Source: a virus (lineage: Duplodnaviria; Heunggongvirae; Uroviricota; Caudoviricetes). Taken from it: DNA of 10,170 nucleotides. The stretch lies in IMG/VR virus record IMGVR_UViG_2703718835_000004, one strand, 5' to 3'. Within the stretch, counting starts at the first letter, position 1. Each line of letters starts with the position of its first letter. The notes beneath the pieces are model-generated. The model saw nothing but the letters and a program-made list of their open reading frames with translations. It was not told where the DNA came from and did not search any database. The translations under genes and the position numbers were made by a program. Shown here piece after piece: positions 2,346 through 10,102 of this stretch.

Positions 2346-3557
2346 ATGATGATGAAACGCGATTACGGCGGTGTCGGCACCATAGCTCTTCGTGCAAGCG
2401 CATTACTTAAGGCCATGAGTCAGGATATTGAAGATCAGCGCAAAGAGTTCAATCAGACCGAGTATTATCAGACGTTCACTCGTAACGCTGTGGCAAAGTT
2501 GCCGAAGCTGAGCCGCCGCATTGTGGAGCAGGCCATCAAAGAGATGGAAGATGATGGGTACCAGTTCAACAAGAAACAGGTCGGTAACGTTGAACAGTAC
2601 GCGCTGACCATCCAGAACGTCATTGATATCTATGCCCACCGTAAGATCCCAAAATATCGCGACATTCACAAATCGCCTTACGTTATTTTTGTCGTAAACC
2701 TGAAGGGTGGCGTATCCAAAACGGTTTCCACAGTCACGTTGGCGCACGCTCTGCGTGTGCATCAGGATTTACTGCGTCACGATCTGCGCATTCTGGTAAT
2801 TGACCTTGACCCTCAGGCATCCAGCACAATGTTCCTCGACCATACTCACAGTATTGGTTCCATCCTGGAAACCGCCGCGCAGGCGATGCTGAACGACTTG
2901 GACGCGGAGACGCTACGCAAAGAGGTGATTCGTCCGACCATTGTTCCTGGCGTAGACGTGATTCCAGCCTCTATCGACGATGGCTTTGTTGCCAGCCAAT
3001 GGAAAGAGCTGGTTGAAGAGCATCTTCCCGGACAAAATCAGTACGAAATCCTTCGACGCAATATCATTGATCGTGTTGCTGATGATTATGACTTTATCTT
3101 TATTGATACCGGTCCACACCTGGATCCGTTCCTGCTCAACGGTCTGGCGGCCAGCGATTTGCTGCTTACCCCTACCCCACCAGCCCAGGTTGACTTCCAC
3201 TCAACACTGAAATATCTCACCCGTCTGCCAGAAATGCTGGAGCAACTGGAGGAGGAAGGCGTAGAACCGCGTTTAAGCGCCAGCATTGGTTTTATGTCGA
3301 AGATGACCGGCAAGCGCGATCACGAGACATCACACAGCCTTGCGCGTGAGGTTTACGCCAGCAACATTCTGGACTCTTCTCTGCCTCGTCTGGATGGATT
3401 TGAGCGATGCGGCGAGTCTTTCGACACCGTAATCAGTGCCAACCCGCAATCGTATCCAGGCAGTGCAGAGGCGCTGAAGAAGGCACGAACCGAGGCCGAG
3501 CGTTTCACTAAGGCTGTGTTTGATCGAATTGAGTTTGTTAGGGGTGAGGCGGCATGA
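2346..3557 (+). CDS. parA: ParA partition ATPase, type Ia (P1/P7 family), with N-terminal regulatory extension
   Basis: Deviant Walker A motif KGGVSKT (residues 120-126, nt 2703-2723) after a ~100-aa N-terminal extension; overall clearly similar to, but not identical with, P1 ParA as I recall it. Three consecutive ATGs at 2346-2354 follow an AGGAG at 2341-2345, so the real start is probably the second or third ATG (2349 or 2352). Confidence 0.92.
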   Translation: MMMKRDYGGVGTIALRASALLKAMSQDIEDQRKEFNQTEYYQTFTRNAVAKLPKLSRRIVEQAIKEMEDDGYQFNKKQVGNVEQYALTIQNVIDIYAHRKIPKYRDIHKSPYVIFVVNLKGGVSKTVSTVTLAHALRVHQDLLRHDLRILVIDLDPQASSTMFLDHTHSIGSILETAAQAMLNDLDAETLRKEVIRPTIVPGVDVIPASIDDGFVASQWKELVEEHLPGQNQYEILRRNIIDRVADDYDFIFIDTGPHLDPFLLNGLAASDLLLTPTPPAQVDFHSTLKYLTRLPEMLEQLEEEGVEPRLSASIGFMSKMTGKRDHETSHSLAREVYASNILDSSLPRLDGFERCGESFDTVISANPQSYPGSAEALKKARTEAERFTKAVFDRIEFVRGEAA

Positions 3558-4519
3558 AAAAAATAGTTTCCCGTGGACGAGTGCTGGGCAAGAATAGCTC
3601 CGAGTTTGCTCGCATGCTTGAAGGCAGTGAAGGCACCAAAACCTTTACCCTAAAATCTGGCCGCCAGGCTAAATTTTTGCTTACCGTTGTGCTGAGTGGT
3701 GAGATTGAGTCGCGCACGTTCGTTGACCCGGCAGTTAACGGCCGCGATCAGTCTCTGCTCACCCCTGAGTCGGTAAGCGATATTTCCCGCACCATTAAAT
3801 TGCAACAGTTCTTCCCGGCTATCGGTCGTATGGTTGGGGAGCGCATTGAGGTATTGGACGGATCACGTCGCCGCGCTGCGTGTATCTTCAATGAAACGAA
3901 ATTTGAGATTCTGGTGACGAAAGATGAGATCAGCCTGGCGGATGCACGCCAGCTGGCCATTGATATCCAGACAGCCCGCGAACACACCCTGCGCGAACTG
4001 GGTAAACGCTTCGAGGTTATGTATGGTAAGAGCATGACCAAAGAAGAGATCGCCCGCGCTGAGAACATTTCAAAGGCTAAAGTTACGCGCGCGTTCCAGG
4101 CGGCAGCGGTGCCGGATGAGATGATTGCTGTCTTCCCTGTTGCCAGCGATCTCGCCCTGCCAGATTACCAGTTACTGCTCCAGATCTCCGAGGATGCCAA
4201 CGCTAAAAGCGTGCCTATTGAAGAGCTGGTTGATACGGTGCGCGAACGAATTGCAGAGACTGAGGGCGCGAAAGAGGATAAAGCGAAGATACTGGCTATC
4301 TTCAAAGCGGAAAGCAAAAGCCTGAAGCCCGCGCCGGTTAAATCTGTGGTGGTTGAGAAGCTGCGAGACTTCTCTGACCGTCGCCAATATGCTCGAAAGA
4401 AGTCCGATCCGAAAAAACGGGTTGTCGCCTACGAGTTCTCCAGACTCCCGTCTGAAGTGCAAACTGAAATTGACGAAGCAATAAAAAAAATCATTGGGAA
4501 AATGTCTGCTGGGGAATAA
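3554..4519 (+). CDS. parB: ParB centromere-binding partition protein (P1/P7 family), 321 aa
   Basis: Start codon overlaps the parA stop (ATGA at 3554-3557), implying translational coupling. Sits between parA and a parS-like site; conserved stretches (GRDQSLLTP, ILDGSRRRAA, AKVTRAFQAA) resemble P1 ParB. Confidence 0.9.
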   Translation: MKKIVSRGRVLGKNSSEFARMLEGSEGTKTFTLKSGRQAKFLLTVVLSGEIESRTFVDPAVNGRDQSLLTPESVSDISRTIKLQQFFPAIGRMVGERIEVLDGSRRRAACIFNETKFEILVTKDEISLADARQLAIDIQTAREHTLRELGKRFEVMYGKSMTKEEIARAENISKAKVTRAFQAAAVPDEMIAVFPVASDLALPDYQLLLQISEDANAKSVPIEELVDTVRERIAETEGAKEDKAKILAIFKAESKSLKPAPVKSVVVEKLRDFSDRRQYARKKSDPKKRVVAYEFSRLPSEVQTEIDEAIKKIIGKMSAGE

Positions 4520-4733: not shown

Positions 4734-4783
4734 TCTTCCGAAAAGGGATTCACACAAGTGCCTTGTGTTTAAGGAAGAGTAAA

Positions 4784-6490
4784 TTGAGTAACTTACGCGA
4801 ATACCAGAATCGTATTGCAGATATCGCAAAACGCTCTAAAGCTGTGCTTGGCTGGGCAAGCACTGCGCAGTTCGGTACTGATAACCAATTCATTAAAGAT
4901 GATGCCGCGCGTGCCGCATCTATCCTTGAAGCTGCACGTAAAGACCCGGTTTTTGCGGGTATCTCTGATAATGCCACCGCTCAAATCGCTACAGCGTGGG
5001 CAAGTGCACTGGCTGACTACGCCGCAGCACATAAATCTATGCCGCGTCCGGAAATTCTGGCCTCCTGCCACCAGACGCTGGAAAACTGCCTGATTGAGTC
5101 CACCCGCAATAGCATGGATGCCACTAATAAAGCGATGCTGGAATCCGTCGCAGCAGAGATGATGAGCGTTTCTGACGGTGTTATGCGTCTGCCTTTATTC
5201 CTCGCGATGATCCTGCCTGTTCAGTTGGGGGCAGCTACCGCTGATGCGTGTACCTTCATTCCGGTTACGCGTGACCAGTCCGACATCTATGAAGTCTTTA
5301 ACGTGGCAGGTTCATCTTTTGGTTCTTATGCTGCTGGTGATGTTCTGGACATGCAATCCGTCGGTGTGTACAGCCAGTTACGTCGCCGCTATGTGCTGGT
5401 GGCAAGCTCCGATGGCACCAGCAAAACCGCAACCTTCAAGATGGAAGACTTCGAAGGCCAGAATGTACCAATCCGAAAAGGTCGCACTAACATCTACGTT
5501 AACCGTATTAAGTCTGTTGTTGATAACGGTTCCGGCAGCCTACTTCACTCGTTTACTAATGCTGCTGGTGAGCAAATCACTGTTACCTGCTCTCTGAACT
5601 ACAACATTGGTCAGATTGCCCTGTCGTTCTCCAAAGCGCCGGATAAAGGCACTGAGATCGCAATTGAGACGGAAATCAATATTGAAGCCGCTCCTGAGCT
5701 GATCCCGCTGATCAACCACGAAATGAAGAAATACACCCTGTTCCCAAGTCAGTTCGTTATCGCGGCTGAGCACACGGTACAGGCGGCGTATGAAGCACAG
5801 CGTGAATTTGGTCTGGACCTGGGTTCCCTACAGTTCCGCACCCTGAAGGAATACCTGTCTCATGAACAGGATATGCTGCGTCTTCGCATCATGATCTGGC
5901 GTACTCTTGCGACCGACACCTTTGACATCGCTCTGCCGGTTAACCAGTCCTTTGATGTATGGGCAACCATCATTCGTGGCAAATTCCAGACTGTATATCG
6001 CGACATTATTGAGCGCGTTAAATCTTCTGGTGCGATGGGGATGTTTGCTGGTGCTGATGCAGCATCTTTCTTCAAACAGTTGCCGAAGGATTTCTTCCAG
6101 CCAGCCGAAGACTATATCCAGACTCCGTATGTTCACTACATCGGTACCCTGTTCGGTAACGTGAAAGTGTACGAAGTACCTGCTGGTATTTGTAAGAACT
6201 TAACGACAGAGAACATTCAGTTCAGCTCGATGGATGTGCTGTGCTACGTCCGTGATGAAAATCCGGGTAAAGCAGGCTTCGTGACTGGTGATGCTGTCCC
6301 GGCCATCCCGTTCCAGCATCCGACCACTCCGGCGCTGGTCAACCGTACCACGCTGTGGGGTTCGGCTATCAACGATATGCACCCACGCAACGGCGCTGAT
6401 TACTTCACTCGTGTAACGCTGACAATGGCCAAAAAAGGCGGGCTTAACTTTATAAGCGGCGACACGATTGATGCCGGTGACTCTGAGTAA
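4784..6490 (+). CDS. Putative major head (capsid) protein, ~568 aa; probable TTG start
   Basis: Long ORF (track 4763-6490) with no in-frame ATG for ~90 codons. The TTG at 4784 lies 6 nt after a strong AAGGAAG (4771-4777). It is the first gene of an operon immediately after parS and before the sheath gene; size (~62 kDa) and position match the P1 major head gene next to par, from memory. Function is inferred from synteny and size only. Confidence 0.5.
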   Translation: MSNLREYQNRIADIAKRSKAVLGWASTAQFGTDNQFIKDDAARAASILEAARKDPVFAGISDNATAQIATAWASALADYAAAHKSMPRPEILASCHQTLENCLIESTRNSMDATNKAMLESVAAEMMSVSDGVMRLPLFLAMILPVQLGAATADACTFIPVTRDQSDIYEVFNVAGSSFGSYAAGDVLDMQSVGVYSQLRRRYVLVASSDGTSKTATFKMEDFEGQNVPIRKGRTNIYVNRIKSVVDNGSGSLLHSFTNAAGEQITVTCSLNYNIGQIALSFSKAPDKGTEIAIETEINIEAAPELIPLINHEMKKYTLFPSQFVIAAEHTVQAAYEAQREFGLDLGSLQFRTLKEYLSHEQDMLRLRIMIWRTLATDTFDIALPVNQSFDVWATIIRGKFQTVYRDIIERVKSSGAMGMFAGADAASFFKQLPKDFFQPAEDYIQTPYVHYIGTLFGNVKVYEVPAGICKNLTTENIQFSSMDVLCYVRDENPGKAGFVTGDAVPAIPFQHPTTPALVNRTTLWGSAINDMHPRNGADYFTRVTLTMAKKGGLNFISGDTIDAGDSE

Positions 6491-6549: not shown

Positions 6550-8139
6550 ATGTCTCAATATTCAATTCAACAGTCATTAGGTAATGCATCCGGTGTCGCT
6601 GTTAGCCCGATCAATGCCGATGCGACGTTATCTACCGGTGTTGTATTAAATAGCAGCTTGTGGGCAGGTATTGGTGTATTTGCGCGTGGCAAGCCGTTTA
6701 CTGTTCTTGCGGTTACTGAGTTCAATTACGAAGATGTTCTCGGCGAACCGCTGAAGCCGTCCTCCGGCTCACAGTTCGAACCAATTCGCCATGTGTACGA
6801 AGCTATTCAGCAAACGTCTGGTTATGTTGTCCGTGCTGTTCCGGATGATGCGAAGTTCCCGATTATTATGTTCGATGAATCAGGCGAACCGGCTTACAGT
6901 GCGTTGCCATACGGTTCTGAAATTGAACTTGATAGCGGCGAAGCCTTTGCTATCTACGTTGATGATGGTGATCCGTGTATTTCTCCTACCCGTGAGTTAA
7001 CCATCGAAACGGCAACAGCGGACAGCGCGGGTAATGAACGCTTCCTCTTAAAACTGACCCAGACGACTTCGCTCGGTGTGGTAACGACCCTGGAGACACA
7101 CACTGTGTCTTTGGCGGAAGAAGCGAAAGATGACATGGGCCGCTTGTGTTATCTGCCTACGGCTCTGGAAGCCCGTTCTAAATATCTGCGCGCGGTTGTT
7201 AATGAAGAGCTGATTTCGACGGCGAAAGTAACAAATAAAAAATCGCTGGCGTTCACTGGCGGTACCAACGGCGATCAGTCGAACATTTCCACTGCTGTTT
7301 ACCTGCGTGCGGTGAAAGTGCTGAACAATGCGCCGTACATGTACACCGCTGTTCTCGGCCTGGGTTGCTATGACAATGCGGCGATCACTGCGTTAGGTAA
7401 TATCTGTTCTGATCGCTTGATTGATGGCTTCTTTGATGTCAAACCGACATTGACGTACACGGAAGCGATCTCTGCTGTTGAAGATACCGGTTTACTTGGT
7501 ACCGATTATGTAAGCTGTGCTGTCTATCATTTCCCGTTCTCCTGCAAAGACAAATGGACCCAATCCCGCGTGGTCTTCGGTCTGTCTGGCGCGGCGTATG
7601 CGGCGAAAGCTCGTGGCGTCAAGAAAAACTCCGATGTCGGCGGTTGGCATTACTCACCGGCTGGTGAAGAACGTGCCGTCATTGCTCGTGCATCACTTCA
7701 GCCGCTGTATCCTGAAGACACCCCGGACGAAGAAGCTATGGTCAAGGGCCGACTCAATAAAGTATCTGTAGGTACTTCGGGCCAGATGATCATCGATGAT
7801 GCTTTAACTTGCTGCACGCAGGACAACTATCTGCATTTCCAGCACGTCCCATCCCTGATGAACGCAATCAGCCGTTTCTTTGTCCAGTTAGCCCTACAGA
7901 TGAAGCATAACCCGGACGGCATTACTGAGTCTGGCCTGACTAAAGGGATGACCAAACTTTTGGATCGCTTTGTCGCCTCCGGCGCTCTGGTGGCTCCTCG
8001 TGATCCTGATGCTGACGGTACAGAACCGTATGTGCTGAAAGTTACGCAGGCGGAATTCGATAAATGGGAAGTAGTCTGGGCCTGCTGCCCGACTGGCGTA
8101 GCCCGTCGTATCCAGGGCGTACCGCTGCTTATTAAGTAA
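6550..8139 (+). CDS. Contractile tail sheath protein, 529 aa
   Basis: The central/C-terminal region carries a pattern I recognise from myovirus sheath proteins such as P2 FI (...AFTGGTNGDQSN...AVYLRAV..., ...AAYAAKARGVKKNSDVGGWHYSPAG...). Size (~57 kDa) and position directly after the head gene are consistent. Confidence 0.7.
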   Translation: MSQYSIQQSLGNASGVAVSPINADATLSTGVVLNSSLWAGIGVFARGKPFTVLAVTEFNYEDVLGEPLKPSSGSQFEPIRHVYEAIQQTSGYVVRAVPDDAKFPIIMFDESGEPAYSALPYGSEIELDSGEAFAIYVDDGDPCISPTRELTIETATADSAGNERFLLKLTQTTSLGVVTTLETHTVSLAEEAKDDMGRLCYLPTALEARSKYLRAVVNEELISTAKVTNKKSLAFTGGTNGDQSNISTAVYLRAVKVLNNAPYMYTAVLGLGCYDNAAITALGNICSDRLIDGFFDVKPTLTYTEAISAVEDTGLLGTDYVSCAVYHFPFSCKDKWTQSRVVFGLSGAAYAAKARGVKKNSDVGGWHYSPAGEERAVIARASLQPLYPEDTPDEEAMVKGRLNKVSVGTSGQMIIDDALTCCTQDNYLHFQHVPSLMNAISRFFVQLALQMKHNPDGITESGLTKGMTKLLDRFVASGALVAPRDPDADGTEPYVLKVTQAEFDKWEVVWACCPTGVARRIQGVPLLIK

Positions 8140-8148
8140 GGAAATACA

Positions 8149-8964
8149 ATGAGCAAAAACTTTTTTCAATCCGGGGCATTTTTGGGGAATGGACTGTCTC
8201 GTTTCGCTTTGAACTCTGATCTTGTGCAGTTGATGGAGTCTGCCCGAGCAAGCGCCGAACCGACAATAGATCCGGTTATTAATAATAATCCGGAACCGGC
8301 GGCACAGACTAACGATAATGCTCCATCTGCCACGGCTCCTGAGCAAATCCTGGAAGGGAAAGACGGTAAAGAATGGACCGTCGAACAGGCGCACCAGATG
8401 ATTCTGGAAGCTGCAAATCGAAGTGCTATGCAGAATGCGTTGAGTGATGCGGCCGACGCCGTTTTCGCCTGGGCTGATAGCGGTGATCTGACTTTCGACT
8501 CCCTTGATGGTTTCGTTCAGGCTATCGCTGGTATCTCTGATGACGACGACTCCGAAGTTACAGAAGAACAGGACGATGCCTATAACGAAGCATGGGCAAA
8601 TGTTGCTGACTTCCTCGCAGCATGCGGTGTAGATGATGACCTGATCGAAGCACTGGCTGACGATGAAGACGACGACGCAGCTGCTGATGTTGGTGCCTCT
8701 ATCGCTGGTTTAGATAGCGACGACCGCGACGAACTGGAAGCGGCGTTTGTTGTTGCTGGCACTTCTGATGAAATGCTGACTGAAGCATTTAAGAAGGTTG
8801 TTCGTAACGGTGAGATCAAACTCATCCGTAAACGCCTGCGTAAAAAACGTCTGACTGCGGCTCAAAAATCGGCGCTGAAAAAAGCGCGTCGAAAAGCCCA
8901 GACCGGCGCGGCAAAACTTGCCCGCAAAAAGTCAATGAAACTGCGCCGTAAGCGCCTTGGCTAA
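8149..8964 (+). CDS. Hypothetical virion-module protein, 271 aa, strongly acidic body with a highly basic C-terminal tail
   Basis: ATG at 8149 lies 5 nt after AAGGAAA. The body contains acidic runs (DDDDSEVTEEQDD, DDEDDDAAAD, DSDDRDELE); the last ~56 residues contain about 26 Lys/Arg (LIRKRLRKKRLTAAQKSALKKARRKAQTGAAKLARKKSMKLRRKRLG). No family recognised. Confidence 0.7.
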   Translation: MSKNFFQSGAFLGNGLSRFALNSDLVQLMESARASAEPTIDPVINNNPEPAAQTNDNAPSATAPEQILEGKDGKEWTVEQAHQMILEAANRSAMQNALSDAADAVFAWADSGDLTFDSLDGFVQAIAGISDDDDSEVTEEQDDAYNEAWANVADFLAACGVDDDLIEALADDEDDDAAADVGASIAGLDSDDRDELEAAFVVAGTSDEMLTEAFKKVVRNGEIKLIRKRLRKKRLTAAQKSALKKARRKAQTGAAKLARKKSMKLRRKRLG

Positions 8965-8990
8965 AGGAGGAGGCCGGAGAACTCCGGCCT
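8965..8990 (+). promoter_or_regulatory. Shine-Dalgarno sequence separated from its start codon by a stable hairpin (split ribosome-binding site)
   Basis: AGGAGGAGG at 8965-8973 follows the upstream stop; a hairpin at 8971-8990 (7-8 bp GC-rich stem, loop gaac) precedes ATG 9000. There is no SD within 5-12 nt of the ATG, and an in-frame TGA at 8997-8999 rules out an earlier start. Confidence 0.4.
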
Positions 8991-8999
8991 TTAACTTGA

Positions 9000-9581
9000 A
9001 TGGCTCCTATAGCTTATGGGGTTTACAGCCAGGCTGACGGTGTATCGCCATATCTGAAAGTTACTTTAACGAACTCTCAGTACCAGGTTACCGGATATAT
9101 CAGCCAGGGAGCGGCAATGAACATGGCCCAGAATTGGGAAGCGCCGTTTACCGGTATGTCCATGGGATCTGTTTCTGGTGCTCTGGGTGGTTTTGTGCAA
9201 GTAGGTACTGAAACAACGTCGGTTGCCCGTTGGAATAGCTTAATGGTTTGGGAAGGGGGGACTCCGCCGACGTTCACGCTGCCTGTAACTTTCATTGCTT
9301 TGAACAATCCATTCATTGAAGTTTCAGGCGCTATCGCCGCGTTGACAGCCATGATTAGCCCGGAACTAAAAGCGGCCAATGTTGGTGGTCGAATCCCGGA
9401 GCGCGTGACGCTAAACATTGGTCGCCGGATCAACATCACCGATGTCGCCATCCAGGACTTAAGTTTTGATCTCGATGCGCCAAGGGACAGTAATGGATAT
9501 TTCCTGAAAAACACCGTCAACCTCCAGTTGACCGGTTCTTCGATATATAACAGCTCCGATATTGTTCGGGCGTTCCAGTAA
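9000..9581 (+). CDS. Hypothetical phage structural protein, 193 aa (tail tube or other tail component is possible)
   Basis: Co-directional ORF in the sheath operon with protein-like composition; size (~21 kDa) fits a tail-tube-class protein, but no motif was recognised. Confidence 0.6.
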   Translation: MAPIAYGVYSQADGVSPYLKVTLTNSQYQVTGYISQGAAMNMAQNWEAPFTGMSMGSVSGALGGFVQVGTETTSVARWNSLMVWEGGTPPTFTLPVTFIALNNPFIEVSGAIAALTAMISPELKAANVGGRIPERVTLNIGRRINITDVAIQDLSFDLDAPRDSNGYFLKNTVNLQLTGSSIYNSSDIVRAFQ

Positions 9582-9592
9582 AAGGATTTTAT

Positions 9593-10102
9593 ATGGGGCA
9601 CAATAACACTAAGGGAAACCGTAAATTTATTAAGGGCCGCTATACTGCCAACGCGGCCAAAGGCGAACGACTGGTATCTTCTGAATTCCAGCTCACTTTT
9701 GCAGGCCATGAAGATATCAGCGTACTGGTTCGTACGTCGCAAATCCCTGAAATGACTCGAGAGAATGTGGAGGACTATGGTCCGAATGGTGTGAAGTTCA
9801 ACCAGCACGGACCAATTCGAAACTCTGGGGAAATCCAGGTCCAGTGCGTGGAGACTATCGAAGGCGATATTCTTCAGTTCATTAAGGATCGCATTGCGGC
9901 GAAGGACTATGTTGATATCACGATGGCTGCTACCCCTGAATCCAAATCTTCCGGGGTTAACGCTGTGACAAAAGCTGCTACAACAATTGAAATGTTGGAC
10001 TGCAAAATCTACAGTGATGCAATCGACTTTAGTACCGAAGATGTGACTGCCGCTGTGCGCCCGTCACTTCGTATCGTCTACAACTGGATTGAGTGGGATT
10101 AA
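9593..10102 (+). CDS. Hypothetical phage structural protein, 169 aa (tail-associated candidate)
   Basis: ATG at 9593 lies 5 nt after AAGGA (9583-9587), 11 nt after the previous stop; the gene is followed by a strong intrinsic terminator, as expected for an abundantly expressed structural gene. Confidence 0.6.
   Translation: MGHNNTKGNRKFIKGRYTANAAKGERLVSSEFQLTFAGHEDISVLVRTSQIPEMTRENVEDYGPNGVKFNQHGPIRNSGEIQVQCVETIEGDILQFIKDRIAAKDYVDITMAATPESKSSGVNAVTKAATTIEMLDCKIYSDAIDFSTEDVTAAVRPSLRIVYNWIEWD

Follow-up and report, generated by a model that had tools for sequence, protein, structure and literature searches.

Several assembly proteins of known function bear comparison with the protein described here. 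The herpesvirus scaffold protein pre-VP22a (pAP) is anchored to the major capsid protein by a short C-terminal tail, and the herpesvirus capsid protease, whose assemblin fold places it in the superfamily of phage prohead proteases, frees the scaffold by cutting the M-site, (V/L)-x-A|S. The gp8 protein of phage P22 is helical, contains about 300 residues, is absent from the virion, and binds coat protein electrostatically through a basic C-terminal helix-turn-helix. In phage T4 the core proteins gp22, gp67, and gp68 and the internal proteins are cut by the T4 gp21 protease at (L/I)-x-E; in T4, HK97, phiKZ-like phages, and herpesviruses alike, the prohead protease acts inside the prohead. In T5 and HK97 the capsid is built with no scaffold other than an N-terminal domain. 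Tail chaperones, lambda gpG among them, are acidic.

Phage P1, a textbook phage, is the prototype of a very large phage-plasmid group, and its head genes are scattered in the genome. Two recent studies, structural and proteomic, state that P1 has no identified separate scaffold and leave gene 21 unexplained; the proteomics and cryo-EM papers propose instead that the 120-residue N-terminal propeptide of capsid protein gp23 serves in its place. The only maturation cleavage mapped in P1, by Edman data, is ...AMLE120|S121VAAEM in gp23 (PMC9024508); this reference site, A-M-L-E|S, lies at 5132..5146 on the + strand of the DNA described below.

The window, which is the whole 10,170-nucleotide stretch of DNA analysed here, is a segment of a P1-type phage-plasmid containing repA (1246-2106), parA (2346-3557), parB (3554-4519), capsid gene 23 (about 4763-6490), and sheath gene 22 (6550-8139; PHROG 1036, E 1e-228), followed on the + strand by a coding sequence at 8149..8964 that begins with ATG and encodes 271 residues plus a stop codon, and then by pmgG (9000-9581) and the tube gene bplB (9593-10102). 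The initial annotation placed this coding sequence between the sheath gene and small tail genes, and this location holds, with gene 22 directly upstream and pmgG and bplB downstream. A Shine-Dalgarno-like AAGGA read from the sequence (8138..8142, + strand) lies 6 nt before the ATG and overlaps the stop codon of gene 22. For gene 23, the mechanically delimited reading frame starts with TTG at 4763 and encodes 575 residues, and the start equivalent to that of P1, at 4784 and likewise not an ATG, gives 568 residues.

The nucleotide identity of the coding sequence is 97.2% to phage P1 (NC_005856 54592-55407) and 99.5% to phage phi456, and the genes 21 of P1, P7, SJ46, and RCS47 as a set are 97-99% identical to it. 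The protein is a member of PHROG 1053 (E 1.9e-98, residues 10-270), which carries no name. Judged by this identity, the coding sequence is phage P1 gene 21. The P1 record describes gene 21 as '21, gp21, baseplate or tail tube', an annotation dating from 2004, and other records call the product 'tail tube protein Gp21', 'tail tube protein', 'baseplate or tail tube protein', 'tail protein', or 'hypothetical protein'. HMM searches of Pfam, NCBIfam, and PADLOC returned no match to gp21, nor did a sequence profile search of the PDB or a fold search. The suggestion in the initial annotation that the function is undescribed thus stands in part: the molecular function is undocumented, but the gene is a classical one.

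Between gene 21 and pmgG lies a GC-rich intercistronic hairpin (8969..8992, + strand; dG -24.5 kcal/mol, z -3.25) that starts right after the gene 21 stop codon and is kept in P1 and Kluyvera; at the equivalent position a Xenorhabdus relative has a different hairpin. The hairpin is real, but it has no T-run and was rejected as a terminator after gene 21. The sole good Shine-Dalgarno sequence of pmgG, AGGAGG (8965-8970), sits at the 5' edge of this hairpin and some 30 nt from the ATG at 9000; folding of the hairpin could bring AGGAGG near the pmgG start codon or regulate pmgG translation.

The charge of gp21 is divided between two segments, as the initial annotation had described. Residues 1-215 contain 31 Asp and 18 Glu against 8 Lys or Arg, giving a net charge of -41 and a pI of 4.05, whereas the last 56 residues (216-271) contain 14 Lys and 11 Arg against one acidic residue, giving a net charge of +24 and a pI of 12; the basic tail of 56 residues is thus borne out, with a count of 25 basic residues in place of the 26 or so first estimated. 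The AF2 model is all-alpha and allows a finer division of the chain, all on the + strand. An N-terminal segment (residues 1-30, 8149..8238), modelled with low confidence and ending in the first predicted protease site, QLME30|S31, is possibly a targeting segment or pro-peptide. It is followed by a disordered linker rich in Pro, Ala, and Asn (residues 31-72, 8239..8364; pLDDT 40-47), which varies strongly in length among homologues or is missing, and by an acidic alpha-helical body (residues 75-205, 8371..8763; pLDDT 83-92). The second predicted protease site, M-I-L-E87|A88 (8398..8412), sits within a confidently predicted helix and covaries with the third, M-L-T-E212|A213 (8773..8787), which falls exactly at the junction of body and tail and whose Glu212 is conserved. 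The basic C-terminal module beyond it (residues 213-271, 8785..8961) comprises 59 residues and 6.8 kDa with a net charge of +25, includes the conserved segment KVVRNG-x-KLIRKR, and is where the family is most conserved. A helix-turn-helix is predicted at residues 237-270 (pLDDT 65-86), and the module as a whole is possibly a beta-hairpin followed by this predicted helix-turn-helix.

A first scan of viral contigs returned only near-identical P1 copies and no diversity. A word-indexed search yielded 85 relatives, and an exhaustive profile search yielded 598 family representatives at 50% identity, 380 of them with E < 1e-10, with hosts that include Enterobacterales, Vibrio, Xenorhabdus, Moritella, Desulfovibrionaceae, and a Roseburia MAG. 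All full-length members examined keep the acidic helical body and the basic tail. Among 70 homologues with a recognisable junction the body ranges from 157 to 218 residues with a net charge of -26 to -41, and the tail is 56-57 residues long, with a net charge of +18 to +26, except in three homologues (one of them truncated). Because this charge design is kept across 70 homologues despite the variable length of the body, it is not a product of chance. The tail consensus reads KVVRNGKVKLIRKR...SAAQK-ALKKARRKA...KLARKKSMKLR-KRG, and the residues invariant in the alignment are R219, G221, A246, K249, and K261. In some members (P0184, P0220, and P0224) the basic module is tandemly duplicated, with acidic spacers between the two copies. 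The N-terminal extensions of some long members are essentially arrays of the putative cleavage motif (MFE|S four times in one case, VLD|N six times in another); a known domain or a fusion of protease to scaffold was sought among these long members and none was found.

Conservation of the neighbourhood, which the initial annotation had proposed examining, is extensive. The order 23 (capsid), 22 (sheath), 21, pmgG, bplB is present in the relatives examined with the exception of a Psychrobacter prophage, and the sheath-21-pmgG-tube order spans E. coli to Vibrio, Mailhella, and the Roseburia MAG. The arrangement of capsid, sheath, gene 21, linker, and tube genes is so conserved that the neighbourhood cannot distinguish a role in the head from one in the tail. 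In the exceptional prophage, of Psychrobacter piscatorii (L110 5383-6955), a divergent gp21-like protein of 299 residues (PHROG 1053, E 1e-42), whose candidate sites are a mix of the Glu and Asp forms, is encoded downstream of a split sheath gene, the capsid gene is not adjacent, and a gene like Hdf (P1 head-size/Dar) lies downstream in place of pmgG and the tube gene. Distant relatives have an extra gene of 103-141 codons between the capsid and sheath genes (L003 7924-8235, L005 7952-8377, L007 8057-8440, L116 3905-4312, and L117 3846-4262), annotated in two plasmids with a Rho-N-terminal-like or RNAP-alpha-CTD-like domain; P1 and the window have only a 60-nt gap at this place.

The alignment of gp21 reveals conserved motifs of the form Phi-Phi-E|S/A, namely QLME30|S, MILE87|A, and MLTE212|A, which appear to be the same in kind as the AMLE|S site of gp23. 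Glu30 and Glu212 are kept in at least 90% of 62 aligned homologues. Members of the family having Glu at these sites (E-type) contain 3.33 Phi-Phi-E-[SAGN] motifs each, compared with 0.40 in shuffled sequences, and the corresponding Asp version is at background although Asp is commoner than Glu in these proteins; D-type members show the converse, with 2.30 Phi-Phi-D-[SAGN] motifs compared with 0.55 in shuffles and the Glu version at background. In a scan of 53 P1 proteins the mean motif density is 0.19 per 100 residues, and the two highest values belong to Pro (2.06) and gp21 (1.48, from four sites in 271 residues), the next being 0.68. All three motifs of gp23 fall inside the cleaved propeptide.

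The identity of the residue at these sites changes in concert. Among 205 full-length members sites 87 and 212 are Glu/Glu in 137, Asp/Asp in 38, and Ala or Ser at both in 7, with about 7 discordant, and the N-terminal site follows the class of the other two. On a rough NJ tree built from the remaining alignment columns, about 13 independent switches of class are required, so that the covariation is not the effect of a single clade. The same switching extends to the capsid protein. In a comparison of 20 loci (the capsid genes of 18, with two more aligned subsequently), the major capsid protein has Glu at the position of the P1 cut wherever the gp21 homologue is E-type, as in P1, Xenorhabdus, Pantoea, Mailhella, and V. 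alginolyticus; at four D-type loci (L007, L103, L104, and L106) the capsid protein reads AILD|S; in the A-type Vibrio fluvialis it reads LLLA|S, alongside ILA|S, LFA|S, and LLS|S in gp21; and in the S-type Moritella plasmid it reads LLS|S, alongside LLS|S, ILS|A, and LLS|A. The protease conforms as well: P1 Pro contains seven Phi-Phi-E motifs, and in the D-type Vibrio plasmid p0908 the homologous protein, encoded beside the portal gene and assigned to the PHROG of P1 Pro, contains nine Phi-Phi-D-[SAGN] motifs and none of the E-type. As a negative control, the sheath, PmgG, and tube proteins show neither enrichment of the motif nor switching of class.

The simplest account of the enrichment, the covariation, the negative control, and the variant classes is that gp21 is a substrate of a co-evolving protease that matures both the capsid protein and itself. 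That gp21 is cut by the prohead protease accordingly seems very probable. The identity of Pro as the P1 prohead protease comes from the literature, and cleavage of gp21 by Pro in particular is indicated by the enrichment, conservation, and co-switching of the motifs, all of them features of sequence. Searches of Pfam, NCBIfam, and PDB sequences with Pro gave no family match. Pro (L002 11015-12034) belongs to PHROG 1801, and both that family and the P1 RefSeq record carry the label 'tail fiber protein' for it, a mislabel that has propagated. The cleavage motif is dense in the acidic, coiled-coil-like C-terminal half of Pro (about residues 165-300), and Pro may itself have a scaffold-like domain.

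Two further proteins carry the motif. DarA (L002 19905-21824, P1 darA) has four motifs in a wider scan, of which two, DLLE68|A69 and LMTE43|S44, are N-terminal and lie within residues 1-69, a region invisible by cryo-EM; DLLE68|A69 is a predicted processing site that agrees with the first residue in the cryo-EM model. In p0908 a 105-residue open reading frame (NC_010113.1, 58731-59048) has three D-type motifs, the highest density in that plasmid, and its product is a candidate for a further head-internal protein. The same plasmid has a diversity-generating retroelement, with reverse transcriptase, Avd, and a SUMF1/FGE-type target, beside its baseplate genes (49890-52805).

Published LC-MS/MS of P1 virions identified 23 proteins, including the products of ORFs 54 (BplB), 55 (PmgG), 57 (gp22), and 58 (gp23); gp21, the product of ORF 56, is absent from this list, and the cryo-EM study of the whole P1 virion includes no model of it. 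The solved P1 structures assign the tube to BplB, the initiator to Tub, and the linker to PmgG. Cleavage at the three sites of gp21 would turn three of its four well-sized tryptic peptides into semi-tryptic ones, and trypsin reduces the basic tail to fragments of seven residues or fewer, so tryptic LC-MS/MS would be blind to any retained fragments of gp21. The peptides suited to a search with semi-tryptic or Glu-C specificity are FALNSDLVQLME, EWTVEQAHQMILE, and DELEAAFVVAGTSDEMLTE, together with the N-terminal AFKK....

The genetic evidence for a role in the tail has a similar ambiguity. Classical amber mutants in 'gene 21' are reported to be tail-less by electron microscopy, and the 'baseplate or tail tube' label derives from this phenotype. 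Gene 21 was also scored essential in a genome-wide CRISPRi screen of P1, whose authors stress that the block is polar, so that any gene followed by an essential one on its transcript gives no information. Gene 21 is directly upstream of pmgG and bplB, both essential, the product of pmgG lying at the junction of baseplate and tube. Since polarity on pmgG and bplB would give that same phenotype, the amber and CRISPRi data are weak evidence for this particular reading frame, and the old tail phenotype may be such polarity. Another possibility is that the am21 alleles fall within pmgG or bplB, the reading frame having been numbered by map position. Gene 21 is not included in a set of 29 P1 gene knockouts, and no non-polar deletion of it was found in the literature searched. 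The heads of P1 tail mutants are reported to be amorphous and unstable, and a head defect in gene 21 mutants could therefore be overlooked. The initial annotation had named a confident match to a known protein of tail assembly, or to the P1 gene in the same place, with a documented role, as grounds for abandoning the idea of a new function. Such grounds exist in name only: there is a P1 gene, but its role rests on amber electron microscopy and polar CRISPRi, neither of which separates gene 21 from pmgG and bplB.

A protein cut by a prohead-type protease would belong to the head pathway, since such proteases work inside the prohead. In its anatomy gp21 resembles, by analogy, a classic scaffold or core protein: the body is acidic and helical, the full-length protein is undetected in virions, and a conserved basic segment, predicted to form a helix-turn-helix, follows a putative cut site. 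We lean towards the view that gp21 is a scaffold or core protein of the prohead that Pro cuts, and that its basic tail binds the shell and is then removed by cleavage. Operon position and a good ribosome-binding site suggest that gp21 would be synthesised abundantly from the late 23-22-21 transcript. The basic module (213-271) would dock against the inside of the gp23 shell, or on some other partner in the prohead, and the acidic helical body (75-205) would fill the interior; P22 gp8 and the herpesvirus scaffold supply the analogy for this arrangement. Once the shell had closed, Pro would cut gp21 after E30, E87, and E212, sites of the kind found in gp23; the cut after E212 would part the anchor from the acidic body, and body fragments of 3-13 kDa would leave or be expelled by incoming DNA. 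Departure of these fragments after cleavage is proposed as the reason that gp21 is missing from the virion proteome and the cryo-EM maps. Against a scaffold role is the location of gene 21 between the sheath and tube-linker genes in the relatives examined, and beside the sheath gene in the Psychrobacter prophage; this conserved position is the best argument for a role in the tail. Scaffold genes of the P22 gp8 type are adjacent to, and usually just upstream of, the capsid gene in the head module, and gene 21 is not so placed. The position of site 87 within a confidently predicted helix also counts against this reading. Moreover, a separate scaffold is not strictly needed in P1, because gp23 has an N-terminal scaffold domain, as do the capsid proteins of T5 and HK97.

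Cleavage by Pro does not by itself specify what becomes of the fragments, and the evidence for gp21 as a protease substrate fits equally well with a processed internal head protein, of which one or more fragments stay in the mature head after Pro has cut gp21 in the prohead. The polycationic C-terminal peptide of 59 residues would then be a counter-ion or condenser of DNA, maybe injected, and the acidic part a neutralising pro-region. The conservation of the tail, the highest in the protein, and its fixed length agree with this, retained fragments would escape tryptic LC-MS/MS, and disordered internal peptides are invisible in icosahedrally averaged cryo-EM maps. However, a small basic peptide in P1 virions is not reported in the literature searched, and the strictness of the tail sequence (KVVRNG-KLIRKR, SAAQK-ALKKARRKA), beyond what charge would demand, suggests a protein partner over DNA binding, so that we regard a retained internal protein as unlikely. 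Improbable too is the more specific idea that gp21 is a self-neutralised 'diblock' precursor, in which the body masks the +25 peptide until the cut at E212 and the polycation then stays with the DNA; by analogy with adenovirus protein VII/mu, the released peptide may act as a counter-ion or condenser in packaging, and may be injected.

A role in the tail is the other direction in which the data might be taken. Were gp21 a non-virion chaperone that aids assembly of the baseplate or tube and is then released, the acidic body could, for example, shield the tape-measure protein as the basic tail engages the negatively charged lumen of the tube. The P1 tube lumen is indeed electronegative, gp21 is undetected in the virion, the sheath-21-pmgG-tube order is conserved, and the reported amber phenotype is behind the tail label. 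Yet a tail chaperone offers no explanation for sites in gp21 that switch together with those of the capsid protein and Pro when the flanking tail genes do not; gp21 has no HMM or fold similarity to any tail chaperone; its gene is neither beside the tape-measure gene sit, where pmgB holds the chaperone position, nor between the tube and tape-measure genes, sit and pmgB being elsewhere in P1; and polar effects on pmgG and bplB confound the phenotypes seen with amber mutants and CRISPRi. Such a chaperone is accordingly a rather doubtful proposition. A chaperone produced by frameshifting was dropped, as there is no frameshift signal and the basic tail is in frame in every homologue. That gp21 is a structural protein of the tube or baseplate, a reading that comes solely from the record annotations, is hardly credible and effectively refuted: the all-alpha model lacks the beta-sandwich of tube proteins (the T4 gp19 fold), BplB, Tub, and PmgG fill the places of tube, initiator, and linker in the solved structures, and gp21 is undetected in virions. 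The database labels are thus contradicted by the fold prediction and the solved virion, and the remark in the initial annotation that gp21 is not a standard tail component agrees with the all-alpha model, the failure to detect it in virions, and the lack of an HMM or fold match. An arithmetic by which Sit and gp21 sum to the length of the tube was dropped as numerology, gp21 being undetected in the virion. Of the functions suggested at the outset, an assembly chaperone or packaged internal protein comes close to the scaffold reading favoured by the evidence. A DNA mimic or anti-defence protein, whose acidic surface would imitate DNA, is most improbable: apart from the strongly acidic helical domain itself nothing supports it, PADLOC returns no match, the gene is in a late structural operon with fixed synteny to structural genes across very distant hosts, and the pattern of protease sites would go unexplained.

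What is new here is the set of conserved Phi-Phi-E|S/A sites in gp21 that switch together with the sites of the capsid protein and the protease. Gene 21 itself was already known, and as a head scaffold its product would be a new family within a well-known kind of protein. If gp21 is a scaffold, a tail assignment 40 years old, which hundreds of annotations repeat as 'tail tube protein', is wrong, and a missing player in P1 head assembly comes into view, with bearing on the switch between large and small heads and on the packaging of Dar proteins. The specificity of the P1-type prohead protease would be defined as Phi-Phi-E|S/A, with D, S, or A in some lineages, which would provide a simple sequence rule for head-internal proteins and a cargo design for the P1 capsid-delivery system. 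If instead the polycation stays with the DNA, a textbook phage has an unseen virion component, and a widespread one given the 598 family representatives.

All comparisons of gp21 with the systems introduced above are functional analogies, with no homology detected. The chaperones gpG/gpGT of lambda and gpE/E+E' of P2 are acidic, essential for tail formation, and absent from the virion, but their genes are found between those of the tube and the tape measure and are expressed with a -1 frameshift; P1 gene 21 has neither property, and its product carries sites of the head-protease type. P22 gp8 has a C-terminal helix-turn-helix, and gp21 is predicted to end in one at its residues 237-270, whereas gp8 is recycled intact and uncleaved, unlike what is proposed for gp21, and is encoded directly upstream of the coat gene, whereas gene 21 follows the sheath gene; no homology between the two is detectable. 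The T4 core proteins have no polycationic tail, their genes lie between those of portal and capsid, and they have no sequence similarity to P1 gp21; nevertheless, they are acidic, of similar size (269 residues in gp22), contain several hydrophobic-x-Glu sites, and are degraded in the prohead, and the P1 motif is of the same type. From the herpesvirus scaffold gp21 differs in its longer and highly charged tail (59 residues and +25, compared with 25 residues), in the extra sites at E30 and E87, and in having no similarity of sequence or fold, but, as in that scaffold, a conserved predicted site falls exactly at the junction of body and tail, and the A-type relatives, reading L-L-A|S, reproduce the M-site consensus.
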